From: a plasmid
Length of the DNA: 64,000 bases
NCBI RefSeq assembly: GCF_056746865.1
Contig: NZ_JBWKMP010000003.1
Reading direction: 5' to 3' (one strand)
The notes beneath the pieces were generated by a model, which made no database searches, had not been told where the DNA came from, and saw only the letters and a program-made list of their open reading frames with translations. The stretch's first letter is position 1; each line of letters begins with the position of its first letter. This document shows positions 3,819 to 36,291 of the stretch, one piece after another. The position numbers and the translations under genes are program-made.

Positions 3819-5740
3819 TAAAGAAACCTATTCGAATAAATATCCAGTCCACTTTTGCAGATACGCTCACTGGATATACGCCTAATCGTTGGGTGGCGGA
3901 AGATATCACCGAGGATGATTTACTTATCGAGCCTGCGACGCTGGAAGATATCGAGCTGGCCTATATGGGCAACGAAATTTTGGTAACTACCAATGAGGCA
4001 ATGTTCGAAGCTTTAACCACAACAAAATTGCGGTTAGCGCAAACAATGCGAGCATTTGTCCGGGCGCTTAATCGCGGCCTGAATGGCACTGACATTGCTG
4101 CGGGTACGGATGAGGCAGGTGAATATGAAGACGGACGTAATAGTATCGGTGGGGCAATCATTGGGCGCGTGCGCCGGGTTGCTAATATCCCTGTTGTAAC
4201 AGCACAAATACCTCTAACCGATGGACAAACGACAAGCATAATTTTCCATTCTCCAACCGCAGACGGCACAAGAATTAAAGGGGATGACGAGCTGGTTGCG
4301 TTTCAGTTTCTTCTTAACAAAAGAAACGTTACGCATGTTGTTGCGCCAATCGGTGGGCGTGATGTATCTCTGAGCCAGGTGTGTCAGGCGCTTTCTAACC
4401 TCATTGAGCGTAACAGTGCAAAATTCAAAAAAGCAAAGGAGCGCCAGGACAAAATGAAGGCTGATATTGAGGGGTATCTCAATGAAGCCGACAAGCTGGC
4501 AGAAGAACGTTCTGTGCTGATTGAGCAGGTTGAAGACGCACAGCGGGGGCTGGCAGAGAAACGCTCAACACTCAATGATATGCAGAATAAATTAGACGCA
4601 CAAAAAGCCCTTAACGGGGAATTGCAGGCTAAGCGCGATAATTTATTGTCAGCTAAGAGCCAAGGAACTAAAGAGCGTGCCTTCAATGATCAACTGCGAC
4701 ACATAAAACATAATCTTGCTACAGAAGGCCAAACAACGCTGGATAATGGTGCTGTAGTTAAGTATGTCACGTCAGGCAGTGATAGCTTTGTCACGATTGA
4801 GGCACCAGAAGGCAATTTCAGTATTGATGTCAGTGCTGTTAAAGGTGGGAGTTCAGCGGACGCTGCAACCAAATTACTTAAAGCCTATCGTGAACATAAT
4901 GCTGATCAATACAAAGTGGATGTGTTGCCGGGCCAGCCTGAGCCAACTGATCAGCCGCAGCCTGAACAGGAGCCACAACCAGCATCACATCCTGATCCCC
5001 TGGAGGTTGGTAAATATCGCTATGCGCTACAATCTCGCCCGGCGGGTGTTGGTGCGGTTCCTGAAGGAAATAAAGCTGTACTTGACCGTCCTGATCAGGC
5101 TGATCCGTATTACGAATATGCTCGTCACGGAATCATTACGTATGACCGCAAACTGACAGACGAAGAAGTCAGTCAGTACGAATTACGCTATCTGCCTGAT
5201 GACGATGAACTGAGAGGGATGGCGAACGAGCTGGTTGCGTCCAGCATGGTAAAACATATTGATGGCTATGTAGATCTGTTTGGAAGTGACCTGAAAACAT
5301 TCAAGGCGCAAGTTAAAATTCTTTTCCGCAAAGCGTTCCCGAACGTGGCATATCCACTTGGTGATGGGGAGAACCTTTTCATTATGGACGTGTATAACGC
5401 CCTTCAAAATCATTCAAGCGAAGTAAAAACAGATCCTGTAGTTGAGCCAGAATCGCAACCTGCACCAGCACCAGAACAGGAGCCGGAGCCAGAAGAAGCG
5501 GGTGAATCAGCAAGCGAAGCTGACCAGGAAGCAGATAAAGCGCTTGAGTACCTGAAATCCGTTCCGGAGCAGTTCACATCCCGCGATCTGACGGTCATAA
5601 GTGCTGAACTTGATCATGTGCAGGAAGCTGCAAACGCTCTTATCAGTGCTGGTCGATATGACGAGAACGAAGCAACTGTAGGTGCAGCCGTTGACTACCT
5701 GATCAATATTCTGGCTGAAATTCAGCAGGGAGGTGCTTAA
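3815..5740 (+). CDS. DarA-like candidate (large head-associated protein with coiled-coil and Pro/Glu-rich linkers)
   Basis: 641 aa, close to my recollection of the size of P1 DarA; operon context lyd-like, this gene, small gene; two PEPxxQP-type linkers. Assignment is from size and position, not alignment. Confidence 0.35.
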   Translation: MIKKPIRINIQSTFADTLTGYTPNRWVAEDITEDDLLIEPATLEDIELAYMGNEILVTTNEAMFEALTTTKLRLAQTMRAFVRALNRGLNGTDIAAGTDEAGEYEDGRNSIGGAIIGRVRRVANIPVVTAQIPLTDGQTTSIIFHSPTADGTRIKGDDELVAFQFLLNKRNVTHVVAPIGGRDVSLSQVCQALSNLIERNSAKFKKAKERQDKMKADIEGYLNEADKLAEERSVLIEQVEDAQRGLAEKRSTLNDMQNKLDAQKALNGELQAKRDNLLSAKSQGTKERAFNDQLRHIKHNLATEGQTTLDNGAVVKYVTSGSDSFVTIEAPEGNFSIDVSAVKGGSSADAATKLLKAYREHNADQYKVDVLPGQPEPTDQPQPEQEPQPASHPDPLEVGKYRYALQSRPAGVGAVPEGNKAVLDRPDQADPYYEYARHGIITYDRKLTDEEVSQYELRYLPDDDELRGMANELVASSMVKHIDGYVDLFGSDLKTFKAQVKILFRKAFPNVAYPLGDGENLFIMDVYNALQNHSSEVKTDPVVEPESQPAPAPEQEPEPEEAGESASEADQEADKALEYLKSVPEQFTSRDLTVISAELDHVQEAANALISAGRYDENEATVGAAVDYLINILAEIQQGGA

Positions 5741-6108
5741 TGGCTATCTCTGTTTTAGAACGCCTGAAATTAGGTAAAGAGCTATCAGATCTAATGCAGG
5801 CGCAGAAAACCGCGCCAGTATTGCAACGCGTCTCAATTGGTAAGCAGATTGTTGATGTGATGCTTAAACTGGGGCTTGGGGCTGCGGCCCAATCAGTATC
5901 GGATCCGCAGGCGCAGCCAGATACTGTTGCAGGTGACATTCCTAAGATAGTGACAGACTTCCTTGGAGGTGCATTCACAAAGTCCACGCAAATGGAATTT
6001 ATTGATGCGCTACGTGGGATCTCAAACTATGTAGGCGAGTTCCTTACGTTGGAACAGGCTAAAGAGCAGACCATAAGCTGGGTGAAAGCCAACGGTTATG
6101 CAGGGTAA
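5740..6108 (+). CDS. Small hypothetical protein (DdrA position)
   Basis: 122 aa, ATGA-coupled to the upstream gene, followed by a terminator. Confidence 0.4.
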   Translation: MAISVLERLKLGKELSDLMQAQKTAPVLQRVSIGKQIVDVMLKLGLGAAAQSVSDPQAQPDTVAGDIPKIVTDFLGGAFTKSTQMEFIDALRGISNYVGEFLTLEQAKEQTISWVKANGYAG

Positions 6109-6111
6109 TCA

Positions 6112-6139
6112 AAGGGGCTGAAATGCCCCTTTCACTTTC
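6112..6139 (+). terminator. Rho-independent terminator-like hairpin
   Basis: aaaggggc-tgaaat-gcccctttc. Confidence 0.5.
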
Positions 6140-6201
6140 CTGTAAGTCCATAAATCACACACTTTTTACACTTCCTGCTTTCTATGTAAGGGGAGTGTAT
6201 T

Positions 6202-7587
6202 TTGAACAAGTCAGTTACTTCCGCGCTATCCGAAGCAGCAGACATTAACAGTGTTATTGCGCTGGTTTCTTCATTAGAGAGGCGAGAAACACGCCAGGGG
6301 CGCAGTAGTTACGTAGTCACCAGTAAAGGGGCAGAGGTAAAGACGGCTTTTAAGGTCGTTGATGCCAGCAGTCTGATCATTTCGAACAACCTTGACGGTA
6401 CGATTAATCCGGCCTTCCCGGAAGAACTCCAACCACGAGATCGTACCCGGCTATCCAGCAAACTCCAGGTTAACCGTATTGCCTCCAATTTACGCCCGGC
6501 ACAATTAACGGATTCCGGTATGAGCAGCCACGGAGCGCCGATAGTTGGTCCGGACAACGTTGTTGAATCCGGCAACGGAAGGAGTATGGGTATCTGGCGT
6601 GCCTATGAGCAAGGACAGGCGGATGAGTATCGCCAGTACCTGATCGACCATGCGAAAGAGTTTGGTCTGAATCCTGACGAAATTTCGCAAATGTCTATGC
6701 CCGTACTGGTGCGAGAAAGACTCACAGATGTAGACCGCGCTCAATTTGCCCGCGATTCAAACATTAGCGATCTGCAAGAGATGGCAGCAAGTGAAAAAGC
6801 GTATGCGGATGCGCAATTTCTCACTGAGAGCGTCATGGCGCTATTTAATCCTTCAGATGATGGAAATCTGCTGGCGCGGTCCAATGATGCGTTTATTCGT
6901 GCGTTTTTGCGCGAAATTGGCGATACAGCGACGGCAGGCTTGCTTACTGCCGATGGGCGTCCCACGAAACAGCTTATCGATCGCATCCAGAATGCAATTT
7001 TTGCCAAAGCGTACAAGGATGAAAGGCTTGTTCGGTTGGTGGCGGAAGAGCCAGATCCGGAAATGCGTAACATCCTTACCGCATTAAATACGGCAGCCAG
7101 CGATTTTGCGCAAATGCAGTCGCTTTCAGGTGATGTTCACCATGACACGGTAACCGGACTGGTAGACGGTATAGAGCAATTGAATGGTCTGGATAAACAG
7201 GCTATAGCAGCACTCCAGGACGCGATTAACCTTGTTCGTGAAGCCAAAGACAACGGTCAGGCAGTGGAAGAGGTGATAGCCCAGCGCGGACTCTTCGGTG
7301 ATAGCACGCCGGAAGCTGAGGCGTTGGCGCTATTCATCGTGGCAAATAATCGAAGCGCGAAGCGCATGGGGGCTGCATTCAAAAAAATGGCACAAAAAAT
7401 CAACGACGAACTGATTCATAAACAGCAGGCGTTGGGCGATATGTTCGGCGGTGGAGATGTCGATCTACGTAGTATTTTGACCGCTGTTTCTAATGAGATT
7501 GAACTGGAACATGGAGAGGGGAAAGGGCTTAACTTCACGATGTTCGAAGCCAAAACAGAACAAAGCGATTTTGGGCTGGAAACCTGA
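6202..7587 (+). CDS. Hypothetical 461-aa protein, probable TTG start
   Basis: Long ORF with RBS aagggga 8 nt upstream of TTG; no recognisable motif by eye; occupies the slot after the dar-like genes. Confidence 0.5.
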   Translation: MNKSVTSALSEAADINSVIALVSSLERRETRQGRSSYVVTSKGAEVKTAFKVVDASSLIISNNLDGTINPAFPEELQPRDRTRLSSKLQVNRIASNLRPAQLTDSGMSSHGAPIVGPDNVVESGNGRSMGIWRAYEQGQADEYRQYLIDHAKEFGLNPDEISQMSMPVLVRERLTDVDRAQFARDSNISDLQEMAASEKAYADAQFLTESVMALFNPSDDGNLLARSNDAFIRAFLREIGDTATAGLLTADGRPTKQLIDRIQNAIFAKAYKDERLVRLVAEEPDPEMRNILTALNTAASDFAQMQSLSGDVHHDTVTGLVDGIEQLNGLDKQAIAALQDAINLVREAKDNGQAVEEVIAQRGLFGDSTPEAEALALFIVANNRSAKRMGAAFKKMAQKINDELIHKQQALGDMFGGGDVDLRSILTAVSNEIELEHGEGKGLNFTMFEAKTEQSDFGLET

Positions 7588-14633: not shown

Positions 14634-17600
14634 TTGAGGGGGCTTCCTTTGGACAAAATAATTGATTCAATTAGCCAGGCCACCAGCATTGGGGCGCTGA
14701 TTGAAATTGTTAGTCGGTTGCATAAACCGCGAGCTGTAGTGACCTTTGGCGTTAAGAAAGTCGATGGCGTCAGTATTCAGAAAACACGCCGGACAGCAAA
14801 CAACGCCGCAGTAGATCTTCTTAATTCCCTTCCGCCCGGCTTCGATGGAGCGAAATTAACTGACGAACAGCGTCAGATTCTTGCCGGGTATACCGGTGAA
14901 GGCGGCCTGACAGATGGTGAGGGCAGCCAATACGAATACTATACGCCACAGTTTATGGCAGAAGGTATATGGGATCTCTTCGGCGACTACGGTATTGATA
15001 GCGGTCACGTACTGGAACCGTCAGCAGGCACAGGTATTTTCCAGGAGACAAAACGGCAGGGCATGATAATGACCAGCGCCGAACTGTCTCCGATCTCCGG
15101 TCGAATAAACCAGCTTTTGCACCCGGAAGATGATGTGAATATCGGGGCGTTTGAGGCGCTGGCGGCGAAAGATGCAATGTATGACCACGCAGTTGGTAAC
15201 GTACCGTTTGGCGAAGGGCGTTCCGGCGTCGCCGGGCTTGATCCGGCATATGCAAACGAGAAGAACGTTGGCAATTATTTTGTGCTGCGCACGATCGACA
15301 AGGTTAAGCCTGGTGGGCTAATTGTATTGGTGGTGCCGAATGGCATGACCGATGGTACGAAATACAAAAAATTGCGCGATAAAGTCAGCCGTAAAGCGGA
15401 ATTTTTGGGCGCGCATCGTATGCCTTCTGGTACGTTCAGCGAATCCGGTACAGATACCGTGGTGGACGTATGGGTATTGCGTAAACACCCGGAAACCTTC
15501 CTGGAGATGATCCCCGACACGGATGATGCAACGCTCAAATCGGCAAACGTCCTTTGGGATACCTTCCTCAAAGGGAAATGGTTTACAACCGAAGGGAAGC
15601 GATTTGTTTACGGCGACATGGAACGCACCAGCTTCCGCAATACCCTGGTGGTGAAAAAGGACGGTCGTGTATCCAATGAGTCGATGAAAACCGCGTTATC
15701 ACGCCGCTTTGAAAGCCGTATTAATTGGGATTTGCTCGGAGTAACTACCCAGGCATGGCAGGGCGCAAAAGTAGGGGATAAGCGTCTTGTAGGCGGTATC
15801 TGGCATGAGTTTGATGGCCTGAAATGGGTTAAGGACACGACAACCAAATCCTCCGCGCTTGATGTAAGTCGATATGGTGTTTCGACGTTTGGCGATCTGC
15901 AGATCGCGTTCCAGTCAACAAACGGGATTCTGGCTTTGTCATGGGACCAGATATCGGCGATCGCGTCCGACTATCCATCGGTTGTCAGTGATGAAGTGGC
16001 AGCAATGATTCGCTTTGCTGGCAAACAGCGAGAAAAAGACAGGGAGCGCGTTATGCGCGGTGCGTTGATAGGGCAGTTGATCAACAAGGCACTTGATTTG
16101 CGTAACCTGGGGGTGAACGTTGATGACAAACTGGCAGATGCATCCCGCCTGGCGGCAGCAGAAGTTGCGAAGTATGGACCACCGCACGCGATTAAGCTGA
16201 ATGGGCTTGCTGAAGCTGGCGCTAAAAACTGGATGACGTTCACTGGCAATGTGAAACAGGATGGTTCCACTTCTGACCTTCTGGCAGGGCGACTTGATGT
16301 AACGGATGGTGCTGCCGGTATTGACTTTACACGTCCGGAACAAGTGATAGCACATCTTTTCAGTGATGTAGCCCTTAATCCTATAACGCTGGGCGACTTT
16401 CGTGAGGCGTTTGCTGGTGAACTGCCAGAGGACGACGACGCGGCCCTTGAATACCTGGCGAAATTTGATGATATCGCTATTGATGGGTATGGCTGCCTGC
16501 TGCCGATGGACCGCGCCACCAGCGGCGATATTGTAACCAAAACAGCATTGCTGGTGGGCTGGCGTGATGCATCAACAGGTGAGCAGAAAGCGAACTTTGA
16601 GCGTCAGTTGGCGAAAATCGAAGAGAAACGCATTTTCACGCCACTAAATAAAGTCACCGTTAATCTGAACGCCCGCTGGCTGGATCGCCGCTTGATAAAA
16701 GAGTTCCTGGCAGAGCAGGGCTATGACGAGTTTAAGTACACTGAACCTGATCTGAAGGTCGTCGATGGCATTCTGGTATCTCCGGACGATTACGAAGGTA
16801 AGGACGGGGTATTTACCGGCTATCAGCTACGAACCGTAAACGGCAAAAACGGGAATGAGTTCAAGAAGGCCAACAATAAAGACGGCTTCCTGAACCAGTT
16901 AGAAAACTACCTGAACGGTGTTAAACCGCGTGGGCAGAACGCTAACGAGTACCTGGATAAAATTGCTCAACTGGAAGTTAGCTTTAACGACTGGTTACGC
17001 ACCCACCCGCAGGCGGATCAGATAGCCCGTGACTATAACGACGCATTCAATGGCTTCATTCCGTTCACGCACTCTAACGCACCGCTTGGCCTGGAAGGGA
17101 TTAGTGGAAAGCGCATTCCTCTGACTTATCAGAATGAAGAAGTTCGTCGCTTGTCAGAAGATGGGCGCGGCATCATGGGATTTGGTACCGGGCTGGGTAA
17201 AACCACGACCGCGCTTGCGCTTGAGGCGTATAACTTCGAAACAGGTCGTACTAAACGCACGTGTATTGTTGTTCCGAAGGCGGTTTATCAGAACTGGTAT
17301 CACGAGGCACAGAGCTTCTACAGTGCTGATGCCTTCGCCAATATGATGTTTATCGGTCTGGATGAAGTTCGTGATGACAGCGGAAATATTCTGACCGCTC
17401 CGGTGCTTGATGAAAATGGCGAACCCCGCCTCGACAGTAACGGGCAGCCTCTTACCAGAAATGTTGTGAAAGAGTCCGCCAGCGCCGTTATCGTTCAGCG
17501 CATGAACATGATCCCGTCGTCAAATTGGCGAACGGTCATCATGACAAAAGAACAATTCGCGTCTATCCCGCTACGAGAAAAAACCATCGAGGAGAACTCA

Positions 17601-20600
17601 CAGCAAGCTGTCTTTAATGCTGTGGAAATGGGGCGTCTTGACCTGGCGTCTGGTAAACACCGTGATGCGCAGAAGAAGAACAAGATTAAGGATCAGGCCG
17701 CGAATACCGGTACAACGAAGAAGCAGAATATCCCGTACTTTGAGGATATGAACTTCGATAGCGTGATAGCCGACGAGGGGCATAACTACCGCAACTCCTT
17801 TAATGCCGGGCGTGAAGCGGGACAACTGGCATATTTGCCTAACCCGGCAGTATCCAAGATGGCCCGCGACATGGCTGTAAAAGCTGCGTACATGATGAAA
17901 CGCAACAACGGGCGTGGTGTAGTCATGCTGACGGCAACACCGCTGGTGAACAGTCCGATTGATGCCTTCAACATGCTGTCTACTGTCATTCCGCAGGAAG
18001 AGTGGATGCGCATGGGCATCATTACGCCTGATGATTTCGTTCGTGTGTTTGGTAAAACAGCCACAGTTCAGGTCCAGAAAATTTCCGGGGAAGTGGAAGA
18101 GAAGCAGGGGCTGGTTGGCTTCCAGAACCTTGATGGCCTGCGTGGTATTTTCCATCGCTGGACTACTCTGAAGACTGCTGCGGACGTCGGGGCGACGGTT
18201 AAAATCCCTGATATTGTCGAGAATACCTTGCAGATCCCGATGACAGGGGAGCAGGAGGCTGCTTATGAAGAGCTTCGTAAGCGTGCACAGGAGTTAAGTA
18301 GTAAAGATGCGCTGACGGTTGATGAAAACGGGCATATCACAAACGAAAAACCGGATGATTTCATCTTCTCCATCATCCGCGACATGGATAAGGTTGCTAT
18401 AGATCCGGATCTGTATGCCAGTGCGATTACATTCCAGTTCCCCGTTGAGCTTGCAGACAAGGTAAAAGCTATTGCTGATGCCCTGCCAAAAGTAGCTGGC
18501 GGTAAAGTGGCAGATGATGCAGACGAGGCCGAAGAAGACGGCGCTGGTGGGCTGGTTAGTACGCGCACCAGTAAGGTAGTGAAGACCACCTTTAGTGAAC
18601 ATCCGGCGCATGTTGAAATACGTGCCAGCATTGAACTGGAAGCTGAAATACTGAAGGCCATTGCTGCCGCCGGGATTGATATGCAGCAGGTATCACACCC
18701 AATCCCGCCGAAGTATGCCGCGCTGATCGAAAACCTTCGTGAAGGTCTGAAGAACGGTAAACAAATTGTCTTCATTGATGAAAAAGCCCAGCACCAGAAG
18801 CTGCGCCGTATTATCGCCAGTGCACTGCAAATGCCGGAGCAGGAGATAGGCATTATCAATGCGACGACCGTTAGCCAGGCTGGCGGCATCAAGCTGAAGA
18901 AGGTGAATAAGCCGACTGAACCTACTCCGAATAAAAACGGTGAATACAAAGAAGGGGCATGGGAAACCTACTACAGCAAACTTGCCCAATATGAGGATTA
19001 TCTCTCAGCTAAAAATGATGCTGGCCTTGAGGGTATGGAAGGCATTGCCGCCGACTATAACGAAGGGCGCACGCGCATAATTATCTGTAACAAGAAGGCT
19101 GAAGTAGGTATTAACCTGCATATCGGGACAACCGATATCCACCACCTGACACTACCCTGGACACCAGCCAGTATCGACCAACGAAATGGGCGCGGTGCGC
19201 GCGTAGGTTCACCGCAAGAGAAGGTCAATGTTCACTACTATTGTGGCAAAGGCACATTCGACGACTTCCGTCTGGATACGCTGAAACGTAAGAAAGACTG
19301 GATCAAGATGGTAATGACCTCCGACATGTCAGAGATCGCCAATGGTGATGCGGATGATGCTGATGAACGCGCCATTATGCTGGCGGCAAACCCGGAAGAA
19401 CGCCGCGCAATCATGGCTCGCCAGGCGCAAGAGCGTGAAGAACGTCTGAAACTGAAAGCACAGCGCGAGGCCAACAATGCTCTCGATATCTACCTGAAAG
19501 CGGCAAACGCCGCTGGAAAAGATATCGGCATGATGGAGACAGAACTGAAAAGCGCGATGGAACAGATAGAGTATTACCAGCGAAATCTTGACGACCTGAT
19601 AAAAGCGGGTACGAACAGGAATGGGCAAAAATTCGCGCTTGAGCAGTTGAGTAGCTACAGAAAACGTGCGCGGGTGCTGCGGTTTGCGATCACCAGGGCA
19701 AAAGACGCGGATACCATAATGAAACGCTCTCGTGGTGATGTGGAGCGCGCTATTAAGTCTGGTGTGCTGGATATCAGTATCGATGTTATTCAGAACCCAC
19801 AGGAATATATGCGCACTGACAAGAATATCCTGTTGCATAAAGGTAGTTATTACCGTGCAGTCATTGATGATCGCGAAACAACAGCGATTGTCCGGGTGGA
19901 AAAAATTGACGGTGAAAAAGCACAATACCTCTGCCGTATCGCCTGGCTGGATAGAGCAAGTCGTTACGCTCGATCACCGGGGTCAATCGTTACATTGCCG
20001 TTTGACTCTGTGATTGAAGCGGTAACTTTTGAAGAGGGGGTAGCTGAATCGCGCGCAACGGCTGCGCGTGGTGTTCAGTGCCACCAGCTATCAACAATAC
20101 TTACTCGCGATCAGTTCTATGATGCTATTCGCAATGGGGTAATGAATGTTATTGCTGGTAAACCTGGTAATGCATGGGGCGGTGGGTCAGCTATTAAATA
20201 CTGGGCATATCGCACAGATGATGGTCAGATCGCGCTGTCATCGGCCTATGATGGCGTGATAGGCCAAAAAATCGGGCGAGCATCGGATATAGCACCTGAA
20301 CGATGGATATATCCAGATGGCAACGATGAGGCGCTGAAGCGTGAAGTGGCAAAAATACAAGCCAGTGATAACCCGCTGAATATCGTGGACGGCGAGGGAT
20401 TCCTCCAGGCATTGTATGGGTATGATTACATCCAGGGAATGCAGGCATGGGGCGCACAGGCAACGATGGATGATGTTGTCCAGGAGTTCGAAAACTGGAT
20501 GGCTGGGCGTGGTCTGTCAGGTCGTTCGCTTAATAAAGTCACTTCTGAAGATATTCTTAGCTTGTTCCGCAAACCGTCCGGAGAAGGTCTGGAATCATTC

Positions 20601-27424: not shown

Positions 27425-28000
27425 ATGTTAACGGCGAACGATAACGCGTATTTAGAAGATGATCTCGTTTTGAGTGACTTTATAGGGCGACGAGAATGCT
27501 GGACGCAAAAGCGCGAGGAGCTTTATGCAGCGTTAGTTCGTAAAGGCGTCAACATCGAAACCGCACAGAACGGTGATATGACAGTGGTAAGTGTTGGACT
27601 GCACGGCGTAAGTGTGTCAGCAATCAATCATGAGCCGTACATTGCGTTATCCGAGTCGATGGTAAGGTTAGTTAAGTTCCTGAAGTACACAGAAGCGAAT
27701 AACGTGCTCATCGCCAAAAAGAACATCCCGTTCTCATCGGCCTTTTACTGGATGATGAAGGGGCTTGATGCCCGGCGAACATCATGGCCTAAAGGGAGCT
27801 ATATATCGATGCTCCGTGGCAGTGTTGGTAGCAAAGAAAAGCTCGTCGAATTCCTGCCGGAAGAGGCATTCGATATTGTTGAAGGTTGTGATGTGATGGT
27901 TATGCCTCGCCTGGTAATGATGAATGGGGATTTACAGGCGCAGACAGACTGGTTTGCAACTGGAGTTGATATTATCGCTACTGACTGGGAGGTTTTTTGA
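27425..28000 (+). CDS. Hypothetical protein with a C-terminal DUF2829 (Tad2-like) domain
   Basis: C-terminal half carries FYWMMKGLDARRTSWPKGSYISML ... DIIATDWEVF, matching the DUF2829 pattern (G..v.R..W.g ... DllA.DW.iv). Confidence 0.55.
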   Translation: MLTANDNAYLEDDLVLSDFIGRRECWTQKREELYAALVRKGVNIETAQNGDMTVVSVGLHGVSVSAINHEPYIALSESMVRLVKFLKYTEANNVLIAKKNIPFSSAFYWMMKGLDARRTSWPKGSYISMLRGSVGSKEKLVEFLPEEAFDIVEGCDVMVMPRLVMMNGDLQAQTDWFATGVDIIATDWEVF

Positions 28001-28380
28001 TGTACGAGGCTACTAAATTACGCACTGAGGATGCGATGCACATTGGTTGGGACATCATCACCTGCAAGATAACATCATGCAAGGCTACACGCACAGACGC
28101 CGGACACAAGAGCACAATATCAGGTTATGTCGTGATGTCAGTCAGGAGTGTGCGCATACGCTTCAGATGGAAAGCCTGCCAGGTTACATCATCAATGCCG
28201 CTTACCGTCGAGCAGGATTATTTATGCTTACCCGAAATAGACGGAGCGTTGCTGGTGGGCAATAGTGGTCGAAAAGCCGATTTTGAAGCCAGTCTGAAGA
28301 TGGCGCAGGCGGTGATCAACAAACATAAAGGGAAGTGGGAGGCAAAAGTTAAGCATGTTGTTCGTTTATCCCGCTGGTAG
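27997..28380 (+). CDS. Hypothetical protein, start coupled (ATGA) to the upstream gene
   Basis: 127-aa ORF with overlapping stop-start. Confidence 0.35.
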   Translation: MMYEATKLRTEDAMHIGWDIITCKITSCKATRTDAGHKSTISGYVVMSVRSVRIRFRWKACQVTSSMPLTVEQDYLCLPEIDGALLVGNSGRKADFEASLKMAQAVINKHKGKWEAKVKHVVRLSRW

Positions 28381-28410
28381 TGTTAGCAAATTGATATTAA
28401 TTTTCTAATA
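28381..28410. promoter_or_regulatory. Operator-like palindrome TGTTAGCAAATTGATATTAATTTTCTAATA
   Basis: Dispersed motif family member upstream of the lpa-position gene. Confidence 0.45.
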
Positions 28411-28487
28411 CATCATGTTTTTGACAGTCTTCTCAGTATTAACAAGCTGATTATCATCCCCTCGGTCTTTTTCTATCCGGGGGATAA

Positions 28488-28880
28488 ATGGAGCAAATCA
28501 GTAGCGCCGAAATAGCGGATATCATGATCAGGGCTAACTGCTATCTGACGGTCACCGAAATCACCAGCCGTGCAAAAGCACAATATCCTCACCTTCATGT
28601 GTCGCGCGTAAACGTAAATAACATCATACGTTTTTTTGTTCGTTCCAGTCGTGCCATTTGCGAAATAGACGACCGCGTATACCCCCGGAAATATTGGTTA
28701 CATGGCCTGAATGGATACCAGTTCAAGGTGCGCGGGCGCACTCCTGAATTCGGTCGGCTGTTGGTGAAAAACACCAACCGAAAGATAGAAGCTCAATTAC
28801 GAAAGGAGCAGCGTCAGTTGGTGGCGATGACTAACCAGCTATGGAACGCCGCTGTGAAAAAACGTGAGGCTTCCCTATGA
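28488..28880 (+). CDS. Hypothetical regulator-like protein in the Lpa position (immediately upstream of pacA-like)
   Basis: 130 aa, RBS ggggg-ataa-ATG, overlaps the pacA-like start; function inferred from P1 synteny only. Confidence 0.4.
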   Translation: MEQISSAEIADIMIRANCYLTVTEITSRAKAQYPHLHVSRVNVNNIIRFFVRSSRAICEIDDRVYPRKYWLHGLNGYQFKVRGRTPEFGRLLVKNTNRKIEAQLRKEQRQLVAMTNQLWNAAVKKREASL

Positions 28881-30241
28881 CGTTAATTAACTGGGAAGCG
28901 CATCGAGCTAAGTTCCTGGAGTTAAGAGAAGAAACCGGGATCACCATAAAAGAATATTGCGAGCAGCATGACCTCAGCTTTAACACCGCCAGAAAGCATC
29001 TCAATATGAAAAAAAATGAGGTTAAGGCGAAAGCTAAGGCTACCGGGAAAAGTACAAAACAGCGCGCAAAAAGCAGCGCCACCGGCTCAAAAAAAGAGCA
29101 AAAAAAGGCTAATAAAAGCACAGAATTTACAAAAACTGACAAATCGTTGGCTGGTGGACGGTTCCGCGCCATGCCGCAAAAACAAAATGCGGATCACAAA
29201 GAAAAGCCAAGTAATAACAACAAGATACACAAGGATGTGAAGGGATCATTTTGTGATGAAATGGGAGAAATGATCCCTAAAAGCAGCGATAAAGCCCAAC
29301 GAAACAAGGGATCATTGCAAATGATCCCTGATTCATCAGCTCAAAGCACCACTTTGCCTGCCACCAACGTCGCCCGTGAGATGATGAAGAACGGCGCGAC
29401 TGAACATTTACGACTTGCGATACAGATGGCGCAGGAACGAGCAATTCAGTATCAGGCTATCGTTGACCAGGAAGCGGAGCGACTACAGGAAGAGATTGAC
29501 GCCCTCGGTGATACACAGCCAGAGGGGATGCACCCAGGGCAGCGTCTTCTCGGACTGATCAGCGATGCGGCCTACTACATGAATGACTTTATCACCAGGC
29601 TGGCAGCCATCTATCAGAACGAGCAGAAGCTACGCCAGGGGGATGAAAAACTTGCGCAGGGCGCGCGTCAGCAGGCATTCAGGGAGGCTGAGGCCAGAGA
29701 AAAACTGGCGATTGCCCGCCTACAAGCCGAGCAGCGTGGCAAGGAGATTGAGTATCGCATTGGCGCTGACGCACGCGCCGCCAGGGTTATCGCCGCCGCT
29801 ATACGTATGCGTGAGCGCGAGGAGCTGGATGATATAGGTGTTGCTGAATATATCGAGCGGCAGGGCGTCAGTGTCCCGGCTATCCTGGCGGCACGAGCGG
29901 CAAAAGCGATCTCACTTCTGGAGCCTCCGGTTTCTGACGTTAACGATGTTGATGATGAGCAACTGGATAAAGAGGCGAAGCAGTTTGCCGAGCAACAAGC
30001 TGGACTCCCACAATGGCTTGCACAACGCCGGGCTGAAGTAGCGAAAATCGTTGATAGGCTTGGGATGGGGGATTACGACCGGAACGGAGAACGTAAAGCC
30101 GGTGAATTTGAGGCCAATGATGAAGACCTGAATATAGACCCTTCCGCGACGGCTGATATCTACGGTGATTATGACGCGGGGGATACCGGTTTTGATGCTG
30201 TAGATGACGAGATTGCGATAGACCAGCCGGAGGATGACTAA
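28877..30241 (+). CDS. PacA-like terminase small subunit (contains pac-like hexamer cluster)
   Basis: 454 aa immediately upstream of and coupled (ATGA) to the large terminase; HTH-like N-terminus, acidic C-terminal tail; internal cluster of Dam-site hexamers like the P1 pac site inside pacA. Confidence 0.55.
   Translation: MTLINWEAHRAKFLELREETGITIKEYCEQHDLSFNTARKHLNMKKNEVKAKAKATGKSTKQRAKSSATGSKKEQKKANKSTEFTKTDKSLAGGRFRAMPQKQNADHKEKPSNNNKIHKDVKGSFCDEMGEMIPKSSDKAQRNKGSLQMIPDSSAQSTTLPATNVAREMMKNGATEHLRLAIQMAQERAIQYQAIVDQEAERLQEEIDALGDTQPEGMHPGQRLLGLISDAAYYMNDFITRLAAIYQNEQKLRQGDEKLAQGARQQAFREAEAREKLAIARLQAEQRGKEIEYRIGADARAARVIAAAIRMREREELDDIGVAEYIERQGVSVPAILAARAAKAISLLEPPVSDVNDVDDEQLDKEAKQFAEQQAGLPQWLAQRRAEVAKIVDRLGMGDYDRNGERKAGEFEANDEDLNIDPSATADIYGDYDAGDTGFDAVDDEIAIDQPEDD
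29191..29327. promoter_or_regulatory. pac-like site: five GATC-containing hexamers (GGATCA x3, TGATCC x2) including two inverted copies of AATGATCCCT
   Basis: Hexamers at 29191, 29243, 29271, 29309 and 29322; aagggatcatt and aaatgatccct each occur twice. Confidence 0.5.
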
Positions 30242-31749
30242 TGGCTGGTGGTCGTAAGATTAAGTGCGTCACCAGTGATCCACGTTGGCGCGATATGGTT
30301 ATCAGGTATCGATACAACTTTACCCAGGCGGTTGTCGATATTTTTGGGATGTTCCCCTCCCACCAGCAGCAGCAGATCATTCAGTCAGTGCAGGAGACGG
30401 GGAGCAGGACGACCGTTACGTCCGGACACGGAACGGGTAAGTCGTCCCTTACCGCGATGTTGCTACTAATTTTTATGATCCTGTTCCCCGACGCCCGCGT
30501 CATTATTGTTGCGAACAAAATAGGCCAGGTAAAAACAGGCGTATTCAAATACGTGAAACAGTTTTGGGCGAATGCTGTTAAGCGCCACGGCTGGTTACAG
30601 ACCTATTTTGTCCTGTCTGACACCATGTTTTATGAGCGTTCCCGTAAAGGGATATGGGAAGTGCTCTGTAAAGGTTATCGACTCGGTAACGAAGAGGCAC
30701 TGGCGGGGGAGCACGCGGAGCATTTACTGCTAATCCTTGATGAAGCATCGGGCATATCCGATAAGGCGATTAACGTCATGACGGGGGCGTTAACGCAGAA
30801 AGATAACCGTATGCTCATGCTTTCCCAGCCTACGCGTCCAAGCGGTTACTTTTATGAATCTCACCATTCAAGGGCAAAGGCAGAAGGCAATCCGGAAGGT
30901 GTCTGGACGGCAATAGTCCTTAACTCTGAAGAATCACCATTCGTTGAACCGAGCTTTATTCGTGAGAAATTGCTGGAGTACGGCGGCAGGGATTCGCTGG
31001 AGTACATGGTTAAGGTGCTGGGCCAGTTCCCGCGTGCAATTAACGGGTATTTGCTTGGTCGTGATGAGTGCGACCGCGCCGCACGGCGTAAAGTGTTGCT
31101 GGAGAAAGATTGGGGCTGGGTAGCGACCGCTGACGTCGGTAATGGTCGCGATAAATCGGTGCTCAATATATGCAAAGTATCCGGTTATCGTGAGAAACGA
31201 CGCGTTGTGAACTTTAAGATACTGGAGATGCCAGGCACTATGGACCCGTTGGCTTTTGCCGACTTTATCTATAACGAATGCACTCCTGATAAATACCCGA
31301 ACATCACCATTGCTGTGGATGCTGATGGCTTTGGTTCAGATACGTGTGCGCAGCTTGTCCGCCGTGGTGCTAATCCCGTTCGCATCCGTTGGGGTAAGCC
31401 TATGTTTGCGCTAAGAGACAGAGAACGCTTTGTCAATCAGCGTGCTTACGCCAATATTATGGCAGGGGATGCCATTAAATCCGGGCGTATGCGTATCGAT
31501 AGTGACCCCAAAACCGCAGATCAGGCATCAAAAATCCCGTATATGCTTAACGAAGAAGGGAAGGTAGCGATGATGCGCAAGGAGCACATGCGGCAGAAGT
31601 TAAACATCAAGTCACCGGACAGATGGGATACCTACTGCTTCACTATGCTGGTGGATTACGTGCCTGCTAATGAAGACATTGGCGCAGAACTCGCAACATT
31701 CCGCGATCAGGTGTTGGCAGAAGTGGATATTCCTGATATTGACATTTAA
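30241..31749 (+). CDS. PacB-like terminase large subunit
   Basis: 502 aa; P-loop GHGTGKSS, Walker B LLLILDEASG, C-terminal nuclease-like region with VDADGFG; coupled to the upstream small-subunit gene. Confidence 0.75.
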   Translation: MAGGRKIKCVTSDPRWRDMVIRYRYNFTQAVVDIFGMFPSHQQQQIIQSVQETGSRTTVTSGHGTGKSSLTAMLLLIFMILFPDARVIIVANKIGQVKTGVFKYVKQFWANAVKRHGWLQTYFVLSDTMFYERSRKGIWEVLCKGYRLGNEEALAGEHAEHLLLILDEASGISDKAINVMTGALTQKDNRMLMLSQPTRPSGYFYESHHSRAKAEGNPEGVWTAIVLNSEESPFVEPSFIREKLLEYGGRDSLEYMVKVLGQFPRAINGYLLGRDECDRAARRKVLLEKDWGWVATADVGNGRDKSVLNICKVSGYREKRRVVNFKILEMPGTMDPLAFADFIYNECTPDKYPNITIAVDADGFGSDTCAQLVRRGANPVRIRWGKPMFALRDRERFVNQRAYANIMAGDAIKSGRMRIDSDPKTADQASKIPYMLNEEGKVAMMRKEHMRQKLNIKSPDRWDTYCFTMLVDYVPANEDIGAELATFRDQVLAEVDIPDIDI

Positions 31750-34650: not shown

Positions 34651-35135
34651 AAACTTACTACCCATCCCTGAACTGTTATCCAACCACTAATCCTGAGCTG
34701 TCAGGGAAACTTCTGTCCCTCCTGGCTGATAGTCCTGATGAATGGCATAAGCCTGGTGATATCAACACACAGTTCCCTGAGTACGGGTGTATCCGCACCC
34801 GAAATGAGCTGAAGAACCTCATTGCTCACGGTTTTGTCCGTCACCGTAGCGGGAAAGGCTATCAGTTGGCTATCCCACAAGGAGAGGCAAGAGAACTCTT
34901 TGGCTATCGAGAAAGCCAGACGCAAGCGCGGGTGATCGCAGAAATTATCCGTAATGGCAGCGTCTATGCCCGCAAATTCTGGCTGTCTGGCGGTGGTGAT
35001 GCATCACAGTTCTTGCGTGCTGTGCGATCGCTGGAGGAACAAGGTGTTATCGAGAATACCTGCGTCTCCGTTCCGACCGCTCCGCATATCAAACGCCGGA
35101 TTTATACATTTACCCGGAGAGCTAAAAAGCAATGA
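34647..35135 (+). CDS. Hypothetical protein (162 aa)
   Basis: ATGA-coupled ORF in an operon with dut. Confidence 0.45.
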   Translation: MKTYYPSLNCYPTTNPELSGKLLSLLADSPDEWHKPGDINTQFPEYGCIRTRNELKNLIAHGFVRHRSGKGYQLAIPQGEARELFGYRESQTQARVIAEIIRNGSVYARKFWLSGGGDASQFLRAVRSLEEQGVIENTCVSVPTAPHIKRRIYTFTRRAKKQ

Positions 35136-35626
35136 TTAACGTGAAAGTGAAACGCCTTCATCCGGCGGCAAAACTCCCCGTTTACGCCACCGCCGGATCG
35201 GCGGCGATGGATTTTGTTGCTGTTGAAATAACGCCGGGTATCGATAGCAACGGCGCTATTTCCTCAAGCTGGTGGGTGCATACCGGCCTCGCTATGGCGA
35301 TCCCTCCTGGCTGGTGTCTGAAACTTTATCCTCGTTCCGGATTGGGCTGCAAAAAGCATACGCGCCTGGCTAACTGCGTAGGAATTATCGACTCCGATTA
35401 TCGCGGTGAAATCAAAGCAAAACTGATTACAGATCCCGGTGGTGAAGGCGTTTGCCTCAAGCCAGGAATGGCGGTCATGCAAGGCATTTTTGAGCGTGTT
35501 GAACCGGTATCGCTGGTAGAAGTTGATGAACTCGATGAAACAGAGCGAGGTGCTGGTGGCTTTGGTAGCACATCGGAAGACCGCATTGAAATCAAGCGTA
35601 CACCGCTTCAGTACGCAAAGTTTTAA
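35132..35626 (+). CDS. dut: dUTPase (trimeric dUTP pyrophosphatase)
   Basis: All hallmark motifs: AAMDF, PRSGLG, GIIDSDYRGEI, RGAGGFGSTS. Confidence 0.85.
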   Translation: MINVKVKRLHPAAKLPVYATAGSAAMDFVAVEITPGIDSNGAISSSWWVHTGLAMAIPPGWCLKLYPRSGLGCKKHTRLANCVGIIDSDYRGEIKAKLITDPGGEGVCLKPGMAVMQGIFERVEPVSLVEVDELDETERGAGGFGSTSEDRIEIKRTPLQYAKF

Positions 35627-35640
35627 GTAGAGGAAAGGCT

Positions 35641-36291
35641 ATGAATAACATGCCAACGAAAGAGCTTTTTAAGTTCCTTCCCAAATACAAAGCTCACAAA
35701 AACGTTAGTGCATCGAAAATTAAAAATGTTGTTATTTTCGGAGTAACTGATGCCCCACTTTGGGGCTGCATCGAACTCGTTGAACCAAAAGGGGCAACAG
35801 TTTGTGTTGACGCAATGTTTTTACAAAAACACCGACCAAAAACTGGCGGGTATCTGATCGTTTATGAAAACGGTTATCTGTTCTATGCCCCGGAGAAACC
35901 ATTTGAGGAATGCTATGGCCTGGTTAACGACGCCTCCAAAAATGGAACCACGGTCATCATTACGGATGACAACGGCGTGATGATTAATCTTACTGGGAGC
36001 GTAACTATTTCTGCTGGTGGCATCACCACCCAGCAAGAAGAAATCGACCTTGAAGCAGCCGACTTCTCTGATGCGCTAATGTGGTTGAAGGAAGGCAAGA
36101 AAGTTGCCCGACGCGAGTGGAAAGGCGAAAAGCAATTCTGCTGGTTAGTTCTCGCTGGAAGCGTCAATTTACACGGCATTCACGTTCCTTATGGTGACCA
36201 TTTTGTATTGAAAGATGCACAAAATATGGACAGCGTTTGGTTGCCGTCTGTGGATGATTTACTGGCCTGTGACTGGTTTGTTGTGGAGTGA
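35641..36291 (+). CDS. Two-domain protein with a C-terminal DUF2829 (Tad2-like) domain
   Basis: C-terminal FSDALMWLKEGKKVARREWKGEKQFCWLVLAGS ... VWLPSVDDLLACDWFVVE fits the DUF2829 pattern; N-terminal ~140 aa unassigned. Confidence 0.6.
   Translation: MNNMPTKELFKFLPKYKAHKNVSASKIKNVVIFGVTDAPLWGCIELVEPKGATVCVDAMFLQKHRPKTGGYLIVYENGYLFYAPEKPFEECYGLVNDASKNGTTVIITDDNGVMINLTGSVTISAGGITTQQEEIDLEAADFSDALMWLKEGKKVARREWKGEKQFCWLVLAGSVNLHGIHVPYGDHFVLKDAQNMDSVWLPSVDDLLACDWFVVE

Follow-up and report, generated by a model that had tools for sequence, protein, structure and literature searches.

A divergent Tad2-like domain joined to a dsRBD-like domain in a D6-like phage-plasmid, a putative sponge for nucleotide immune signals

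In this study, we analysed a 64,000-nucleotide stretch of plasmid DNA (contig NZ_JBWKMP010000003.1 of the NCBI RefSeq assembly GCF_056746865.1; hereafter the window), which belongs to a D6-like, P1-related Escherichia coli phage-plasmid. The gene of interest, here called ORF1 (open reading frame 1), is a genuine gene that is maintained by selection in D6/P1-like phage-plasmids and encodes a soluble two-domain protein, whose C-terminal 90 residues were shown to be a divergent Tad2-fold domain. From the identity of this domain we infer, as a fairly likely function, that ORF1 sequesters a nucleotide immune signal by means of an oligomeric Tad2-type pocket.

Tad2 sponges are a main phage route to silencing nucleotide-signalling immunity. 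Recent work has shown that the ligand range differs widely between members of the family, and that new sponges can be found among the domains fused to Tad2. In a DefenseFinder-based survey, 93% of the D6 phage-plasmids and 56% of the P1 ones carried Tad2 (bioRxiv 10.1101/2025.09.12.675607). ORF1 is a variant within this known anti-defence family rather than a new type of system.

Results

The gene, its domains, and the codons of its putative pocket residues are located as follows.

27414–27419, plus strand: Shine-Dalgarno sequence AAGGAG, 5 nt upstream of the ORF1 ATG, read from the sequence
27425–28000, plus strand: ORF1 coding sequence from the ORF list, 191 amino acids and a stop codon, ATG start
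27425–27721, plus strand: N-terminal domain, residues 1–99
27722–27997, plus strand: C-terminal Tad2-like domain of the long-insertion type, residues 100–191
27785–27787, plus strand: codon of W121, equivalent to W25 of SPO1 Tad2 and W21 of HgmTad2; the next residue is P122
27950–27952, plus strand: codon of W176, equivalent to W73 (SPO1) and W87 (Hgm)
27968–27970, plus strand: codon of D182, equivalent to the ribose-binding D79 (SPO1) and D93 (Hgm)

ORF1 is the homolog of orf6/gp006 of phage D6, a "hypothetical protein" with 92% amino acid identity, and matches PHROG 7362 over its full length. The protein has an isoelectric point (pI) of 4.9 and a maximum 19-residue hydropathy of 1.20, a membrane helix being expected at roughly 1.6. 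Its AlphaFold2 model, built on a 17-sequence alignment, is globular and consists of two domains, with a mean predicted local distance difference test score (pLDDT) of 88.4.

In a Pfam search with hmmscan, residues 103–190 were assigned to the Tad2-like family PF11195, the renamed DUF2829 (E = 2.6e-9, model positions 3–72 of 73), and the homologs of ORF1 also carry precomputed PF11195 assignments. A profile of the C-terminal domain family matched all of the solved Tad2 sequences, including HgmTad2, SptTad2, ModTad2, and SPO1 Tad2, with E-values from 1.8e-9 to 3.6e-7, the best matches being the long-insertion forms HgmTad2 and SptTad2. Similarly, Foldseek with the ORF1 model matched every solved Tad2 (ModTad2, SptTad2, SPO1 Tad2, and HgmTad2/AcrIIA7). 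The domain shares 23–38% identity with every Tad2 compared, including that of ORF2, a second Tad2-like gene in the window. A pairwise BLASTP comparison of ORF1 and ORF2 was not significant (E = 0.5). Alignment of the two family alignments with hhalign gave 97.3% probability (E = 1.7e-11, 91 columns), confined to the C-terminal domains. A hidden Markov model (HMM) of each family found the other ORF (E = 2.5e-8 and 3.6e-6) and nothing else among the 807 ORFs of the window, which therefore holds exactly two Tad2-like genes.

These results bear out a sequence-only reading of the window, which had taken the C-terminal half of ORF1 to be DUF2829-like on account of FYWMMKGLDARRTSWPKGSYISML and the terminal DIIATDWEVF, and had placed another copy at 35641–36291. 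Both strings are present in the translation, the former at residues 107–130. Pfam, profile-profile, and structure comparison all agree on the family, and the profile search that could have pointed to an unrelated C-terminal fold had the opposite outcome, placing the domain in DUF2829/Tad2-like. The gene at 35641–36291 falls in the same Pfam family.

The pocket of ORF1 can be compared with those of characterised members. SPO1 Tad2, an 89-amino-acid DUF2829 protein, is a homotetramer that sequesters the Thoeris signal 1''-3' glycocyclic ADP-ribose (gcADPR) in two inter-protomer pockets, which are formed mainly by W25, N26, W73, and D79 (bioRxiv 10.1101/2023.05.01.538930). The equivalent residues in HgmTad2 are W21, N22, G23, W87, S90, T92, and D93, and an insertion in this protein builds a second pocket for cyclic dinucleotides with R31, D34, S47, F70, and N85 (bioRxiv 10.1101/2023.11.15.567273). 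The ligands of Tad2 homologs as a whole include 3' cyclic ADP-ribose (3'cADPR), His-ADPR, N7-cADPR, cyclic dinucleotides, and cyclic UMP and CMP (cUMP/cCMP), and the ligand range therefore varies strongly within the Tad2 family (PMC12393519).

When the pocket residues of ORF1 were mapped by profile alignment and the family columns (17 sequences), W121 and W176 proved to be invariant (17/17), and D182 is kept in 13 of the 17. T179 is a conservative replacement of S76/S90. The pocket strings read W-P-K-G / T-x-V-D in ORF1, W-K-G / S-x-D-D in ORF2, and W-N-G / S-x-T-D in canonical Tad2. Across the full-length ORF1 family, the invariant residues are A106, G113, R118, W121, G132, W176, D187, and W188; all eight lie inside the Tad2 domain, and both pocket tryptophans are among them. 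As the tryptophans are invariant, D182 is mostly kept, and the canonical Asn is lost, the alignment indicates that the aromatic and acidic core of an ADP-ribose (ADPR)-type pocket is strongly constrained and that part of the canonical contacts is gone.

An exhaustive search with ORF1 of 1.84 billion cluster representatives (E ≤ 1e-3) returned 18 proteins. One of them (P0012, 4941 amino acids, 16 matched stretches) is a plant-like tandem-repeat protein whose weak repeats sum up, and it was rejected as spurious. A word-indexed homolog search returned close relatives only, the distant members being reached by the exhaustive search. About ten members of the family are full-length two-domain proteins with 20–46% identity, and two consist of a Tad2-like domain alone and share the W-P that follows the conserved Arg. 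Every two-domain member with a readable contig is found in a P1-like element and at the same place, after pmgS, tciA, and tciB and just before lpa-pacA-pacB-c1-cre. In PLSDB, the gene is present in 125 plasmids, 123 of which are non-mobilizable. Of the 30 plasmids listed, 28 have a size of about 80–97 kb. The plasmids come from Escherichia, Salmonella, Shigella, Enterobacter, and Pantoea. D6 is the only phage record with the gene, and P1 itself is without it. Between ORF1 and its D6 homolog (dS 0.44), the ratio of non-synonymous to synonymous substitution rates (dN/dS) is 0.086 overall, 0.119 in the N-terminal domain, and 0.046 in the C-terminal domain; judged by these values, ORF1 is under purifying selection.

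Clusters of sponge genes are common. The metagenomic phage-like contig L020 contains four consecutive Tad2-like genes at 5001–7270 (108, 115, 166, and 328 amino acids), the first of which has the same W-P-K-G variant as ORF1. In the distant P1-like element L006, a weak Tad2-like gene (413–931, 172 amino acids) lies about 5 kb upstream of the ORF1 homolog, so that the presence of at least two Tad2-like genes per P1-like element recurs. In the N4-like Stenotrophomonas phage Pokken (L013, 811–1866), a single operon upstream of the terminase contains a Tad2-like gene (gp42) and, two genes away, an Acb4-like gene (gp44, 158 amino acids), in what looks like a sponge cluster.

The N-terminal domain of ORF1 is modelled with a pLDDT of about 90 (AlphaFold2) as three short helices, three strands, and one long helix, with a core at residues 30–91 whose predicted alpha-beta-beta-beta-alpha order resembles that of a double-stranded RNA (dsRNA)-binding domain (dsRBD). 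Its best structural matches are TRBP dsRBD3 and STAU1 RBD5, both of which are non-RNA-binding dsRBDs. ADAR2, Dicer, RDE-4, Loquacious, R2D2, and RNase III score about 6–7.4, and further matches include ribosome hibernation factors, release-factor domains, and the phage protein 1r7l (6.9). Against the structure of SPO1 Acb4, the domain scores 5.6 with 19% identity.

At the sequence level, neither of these families was recovered. There was no Pfam match to PF13876 (Acb4) or dsrm (PF00035) in ORF1 or in any of 13 N-terminal domains, and the N-domain family profile retrieved nothing relevant from the PDB sequences at E ≤ 10, Acb4 (9e4w) included. BLASTP of the domain against SPO1 gp1.3 gave 26% identity over 85 residues, in register, with an E-value of 0.001 that holds for that single pair only, and hhalign of the N-domain family with nine diverse Acb4 homologs gave 1.5% probability (E = 0.033). 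The most conserved Acb4 motif in the collected homologs, ENFNxEIG, lies in the beta3-alpha4 loop that forms the 3'3'-cyclic GMP-AMP (cGAMP) pocket, and nine residues are deleted at this site throughout the ORF1 family. Membership in Acb4 was accordingly rejected at the sequence level, the fold and the architecture being all that is common to the two. Classical dsRNA binding was also rejected, both for the missing motifs and for the charge of the domain: the helix-1 Glu, the GPxH loop, and KKxAK are absent, helix 2 starts with EPYIALSES and has no conserved Lys or Arg there in the family alignment, and the net charge is −5 to +3, with an acidic to neutral pI of 4.9–7.0 in 10 of 12 members. The domain therefore shares the fold class of dsRBDs and Acb4 and is in neither family by sequence. 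Only A74 is invariant, with G41 and G61 nearly so. As no polar or aromatic residue is invariant in the N-domain family, its conservation pattern speaks for a role in structure or oligomerisation and not for a conserved pocket.

The second Tad2-like gene of the window also encodes a fusion.

35641–36291, plus strand: ORF2, second Tad2-like gene, 216 amino acids
ORF2 residues 10–95 (approximate): N-terminal oligonucleotide/oligosaccharide-binding (OB)-fold beta-barrel, predicted fold
36049–36288 of the window: canonical-type Tad2 domain of ORF2, residues 137–216

In ORF2, Pfam assigns residues 141–215 to PF11195 (E = 6.1e-18), and a long linker is disordered or of low confidence in the model. 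Its Tad2 domain is near-canonical, with 46% identity to ModTad2. The gene lies in the order cre-dUTPase-ORF2-isaA, immediately downstream of the dUTPase gene (35132–35626), and its family is widespread in P1-like plasmids, where it is publicly annotated as DUF2829 or Thoeris anti-defense Tad2 family. Since the ORF2 domain is 46% identical to ModTad2 and the ORF1 domain 23–38% identical to all Tad2 compared, the Tad2 domains of the two genes are not recent duplicates.

The sequence-only reading had also described the two N-terminal domains as unrelated and had suggested that the small C-terminal domain is reused as a module, and both points withstood closer analysis. The two N-terminal domains cannot be aligned and differ in fold, that of ORF1 being alpha/beta and dsRBD-like and that of ORF2 an OB-fold beta-barrel. 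Modular reuse is seen in the D6 counterpart of ORF2, gp013 (146 amino acids), which is without the OB domain, and in relatives of ORF2 in which Tad2 is fused to dUTPase (P0088 from E. coli, 241 amino acids) or to PF21825, which is the Sequestin sponge (PMC12265669). Published Tad2 fusions provide further examples (PMC12265669). From the identities of the two Tad2 domains given above, we infer that the two fusions in the window would have arisen independently. The sequence-only reading had also raised the possibility that they differ in ligand specificity; their pocket strings are distinct.

The ORF2 family contains two allele classes. In the first, to which most members belong, W-N-G / S-V-G-D goes with a long beta2-beta3 insertion. 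In the second, which includes the allele of the window, W-K-G / S-V-D-D (36118–36126 and 36247–36258) goes with a short one. Because the pocket and insertion changes co-vary, they suggest a cassette with altered ligand specificity. The ORF2 homolog of phage RCS47 (L018, 2333–2966) is a pseudogene truncated by an IS26 insertion. The idea that isaA of P1 is a remnant of the ORF2 gene was ruled out; the RCS47 pseudogene is separate from it, and isaA is the next gene in D6. The OB-fold domain of ORF2 is also encoded on its own, by a separate gene, in many phages.

Around ORF1, the window matches D6 with 83% nucleotide identity over 95% of the region 26000–30500. The 94-kb non-mobilizable E. coli plasmid NZ_CP085065 is 99.8% identical to the window at 27000–28500. 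ORF1 is preceded by four tRNA genes and followed by an orf5-like gene, lpa, pacA, pacB, and c1.

26040–26972: tRNA cluster directly upstream of ORF1, Asn(GTT), Thr(TGT), Ser(TGA), Met(CAT)
28000–28380, plus strand: orf5-like gene, 126 amino acids, the ATG overlapping the ORF1 stop codon (TGATG)
11290, 24696, 28400, 32927, 34238, 48271, 53347, 53366, 53997: sites of the motif ATTTTCTAA(T/C)A

In the annotation of D6, three tRNA genes are given at this cluster, without that for Met. Because its start codon overlaps the stop codon of ORF1, the orf5-like gene is probably translationally coupled to ORF1. Homologs of this gene directly follow the ORF1 homologs in D6 (gp005) and in the related loci L004 and L005, and weakly in L006. 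The gene matches PHROG 7004, and searches of its product against Pfam, PDB, and PADLOC gave no match. Only a 61-amino-acid 3' fragment of the orf5-like gene is annotated in the RefSeq plasmid record.

The P1 C1-operator consensus ATTGCTCTAATAAATTT has no site in the window within three mismatches. The motif ATTTTCTAA(T/C)A occurs nine times, against 1.5 expected, and is also found just upstream of lpa and of c1; it is probably the core of a D6-type C1 operator. A scan for promoters and terminators around ORF1 gave no more sites than shuffled sequence. Elsewhere in the window, an ORF of 2283 amino acids (14634–21485, plus strand) presumably encodes the anti-restriction protein of DarB type known from P1/D6 elements. 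Its counterpart in the related locus L003 has 2292 amino acids and shows faint SNF2, ResIII, and helicase matches.

Discussion

P1-like mobile elements are targets of host immunity. If ORF1 acts as a sponge, it would oligomerise in the manner of Tad2, likely as a tetramer, and pockets between the subunits, lined by W121, W176, and D182, would bind and sequester a nucleotide-derived signal of a host Thoeris, cyclic oligonucleotide-based antiphage signalling system (CBASS), or pyrimidine cyclase system for antiphage resistance (Pycsar)-type system. With the signal sequestered, the effector would never be activated and the phage-plasmid would escape abortive infection. This function is favoured by the low dN/dS of the C-terminal domain (0.046) and by the position of the invariant residues in the Tad2 domain despite divergence to 20–25% identity.

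However, several observations weigh against it. D182 is replaced by Ser or Cys in four of the 17 family members. The phosphate-contacting Asn (N26 in SPO1, N22 in Hgm), which is present in all five solved Tad2 proteins, is Pro122 in ORF1, and the column is variable in the family. T78/T92 has become Val181, and R31, D34, S47, F70, and N85 of HgmTad2 correspond to L130, G132, F143, V159, and T174, so that they are not conserved. Furthermore, the N-terminal domain might disturb the helix-alpha1 interface of the tetramer, and the strictly conserved place beside lpa and pacAB could reflect a role in the phage's own regulation. The candidate C1-operator core, which was found de novo, is absent directly upstream of ORF1, so that early expression is only a possibility. 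Since neither the Asn nor the cyclic-dinucleotide residues of HgmTad2 have been kept, the binding mode is probably unlike that of SPO1 Tad2. The ligand is probably not bound as 3'cADPR is in SPO1 Tad2; it is probably non-canonical and may be a different signal.

The architecture of ORF1 has a close parallel among characterised proteins. In a preprint, Tal et al. reported that Tad2 fusions with other sponge domains are frequent, that Sequestin was discovered through its fusion to Tad2, and that one Acb4-Tad2 fusion, from Pasteurella phage Pm86, abolishes type I CBASS as well as type I Thoeris defence (PMC12265669). The Pm86 protein was recovered as Pmp13_0045 (100% identical, 185 amino acids). 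Like ORF1 (191 amino acids), it has an N-terminal domain of about 90 residues with three helices, three strands, and a helix, a short linker, and a C-terminal Tad2 domain, and the junction reads KNQIPF in Pm86 and KKNIPF in ORF1. However, the similarity of the two proteins is significant in the Tad2 part only (BLASTP E = 3e-5; hhalign 95.5%, E = 1.4e-8), their N-terminal domains have no significant sequence similarity, and the canonical W-N-G is kept in Pm86 and not in ORF1. In contrast to single-domain Tad2 proteins (SPO1 gp34.65, ModTad2, HgmTad2, and SptTad2), which have 89–104 amino acids, ORF1 has two domains. It also differs from the characterised Tad2 proteins in its W-P-K-G string, in Val for T78, and in the cyclic-dinucleotide residues of HgmTad2, and its family is restricted to P1-like phage-plasmids and to a fixed locus. 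ORF2, which is in the same element, has the same C-terminal family, and is also a C-terminal Tad2 fusion, is distinguished from ORF1 by its OB-fold domain, long linker, near-canonical Tad2 domain, other locus, and public annotation. Altogether, ORF1 is architecturally like the known dual-sponge fusions, with an N-terminal domain that is no demonstrable Acb4 and a pocket that is non-canonical. Its N-terminal domain is most likely an oligomerisation or scaffold module, or else a second, remodelled binding module, an arrangement that would parallel the architecture of the Pm86 fusion.

Two other functions of ORF1 have to be weighed against that of a sponge with a single pocket. The N-terminal domain could be a highly diverged Acb4-derived or new signal-binding domain, in which case two classes of signal would be sequestered. 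It has the same order of helices and strands as Acb4 (PF13876, SPO1 gp1.3) (PMC11722364), it aligned in register with gp1.3 in the single BLASTP comparison, its domain order and junction are those of the validated Acb4-Tad2 fusion, and the Tad2-fusion approach has already yielded Sequestin (PMC12265669). Nevertheless, we consider this unlikely, because the Pfam and profile-profile tests for Acb4 failed (no PF13876 match in ORF1 or the 13 N-terminal domains, an hhalign probability of 1.5%, and 9e4w not retrieved), the ENFNxEIG loop that forms the cGAMP pocket is deleted, and no pocket residue can be mapped onto a domain that has no invariant polar or aromatic residue. Alternatively, the Tad2-like domain may have been co-opted to sense or bind a nucleotide or some partner. 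Jointly with the dsRBD-like domain and the product of the coupled orf5, it might then serve the programme of the phage-plasmid itself, in late-gene activation, packaging, or RNA or ribosome binding. Even in P1-like elements that have diverged widely, the gene always lies immediately upstream of lpa-pacA-pacB-c1, its overlapping arrangement with orf5 is conserved, its N-terminal domain has the fold of RNA- and ribosome-binding proteins, and the canonical ligand-contact Asn is lost. Such a role appears to be rather improbable, however, as the RNA-contact motifs of dsRBDs (KKxAK and GPxH) are absent from a domain that is acidic to neutral in most members, the top structural matches are non-RNA-binding dsRBDs, and both pocket tryptophans are invariant, as a ligand pocket predicts. 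In addition, no non-sponge role is reported for Tad2-family members in the Tad2 literature cited here, and P1 lacks the ORF1 gene, which is therefore accessory and outside the core lytic programme.

The names attached to these genes point to still other functions, which we regard as highly improbable. In RefSeq, plasmid genes that are identical or nearly identical to ORF1 bear the Prokaryotic Genome Annotation Pipeline (PGAP) name "MW1434 family type I TA system toxin", i.e., a toxin of a toxin-antitoxin (TA) system. In its source paper, however, the only mention of MW1434 is in a table of type I toxins predicted by bioinformatics (PMC6266405), and neither NCBIfam nor PADLOC gave a meaningful match for ORF1, ORF2, or orf5. 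Type I toxins are small, hydrophobic, membrane-active peptides that an antisense RNA neutralises, whereas ORF1 is an acidic, globular protein of 191 amino acids with a hydropathy maximum of 1.20 and no predicted membrane helix; no search for an antisense RNA was made. An anti-CRISPR function could be considered on the grounds that HgmTad2 was first published as AcrIIA7, but Li et al. found that Cas9 inhibition by HgmTad2 was not reproducible (bioRxiv 10.1101/2023.11.15.567273). Both readings were therefore rejected, and the RefSeq label should not be trusted.

It is conceivable, albeit doubtful, that the N-terminal domains of both fusions are undescribed modules that bind immune signals, namely the OB-fold domain in ORF2 and, in ORF1, the dsRBD-like domain, which may descend from Acb4 and have been remodelled. 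If so, the element would carry two dual sponges, three or four signals would be neutralised by two genes, and one or two further sponge families would be found by the same Tad2-fusion logic that led to Sequestin.

ORF1 defines a compact, deeply diverged subfamily of Tad2 in phage-plasmids that are clinically common in E. coli, Salmonella, and Shigella. This subfamily combines an altered pocket, a dsRBD-like partner domain, and a coupled downstream gene. In most of the 125 PLSDB plasmids, the gene is annotated as hypothetical or as a TA toxin, and correcting the "type I TA system toxin" label would be useful by itself. If the N-terminal domain also binds a ligand, it would be a new sponge module. 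If ORF1 binds a signal, the range of pocket chemistry known for Tad2 would be widened, and the persistence and spread of P1/D6-type plasmid prophages in hosts with Thoeris, CBASS, or Pycsar would become easier to understand.

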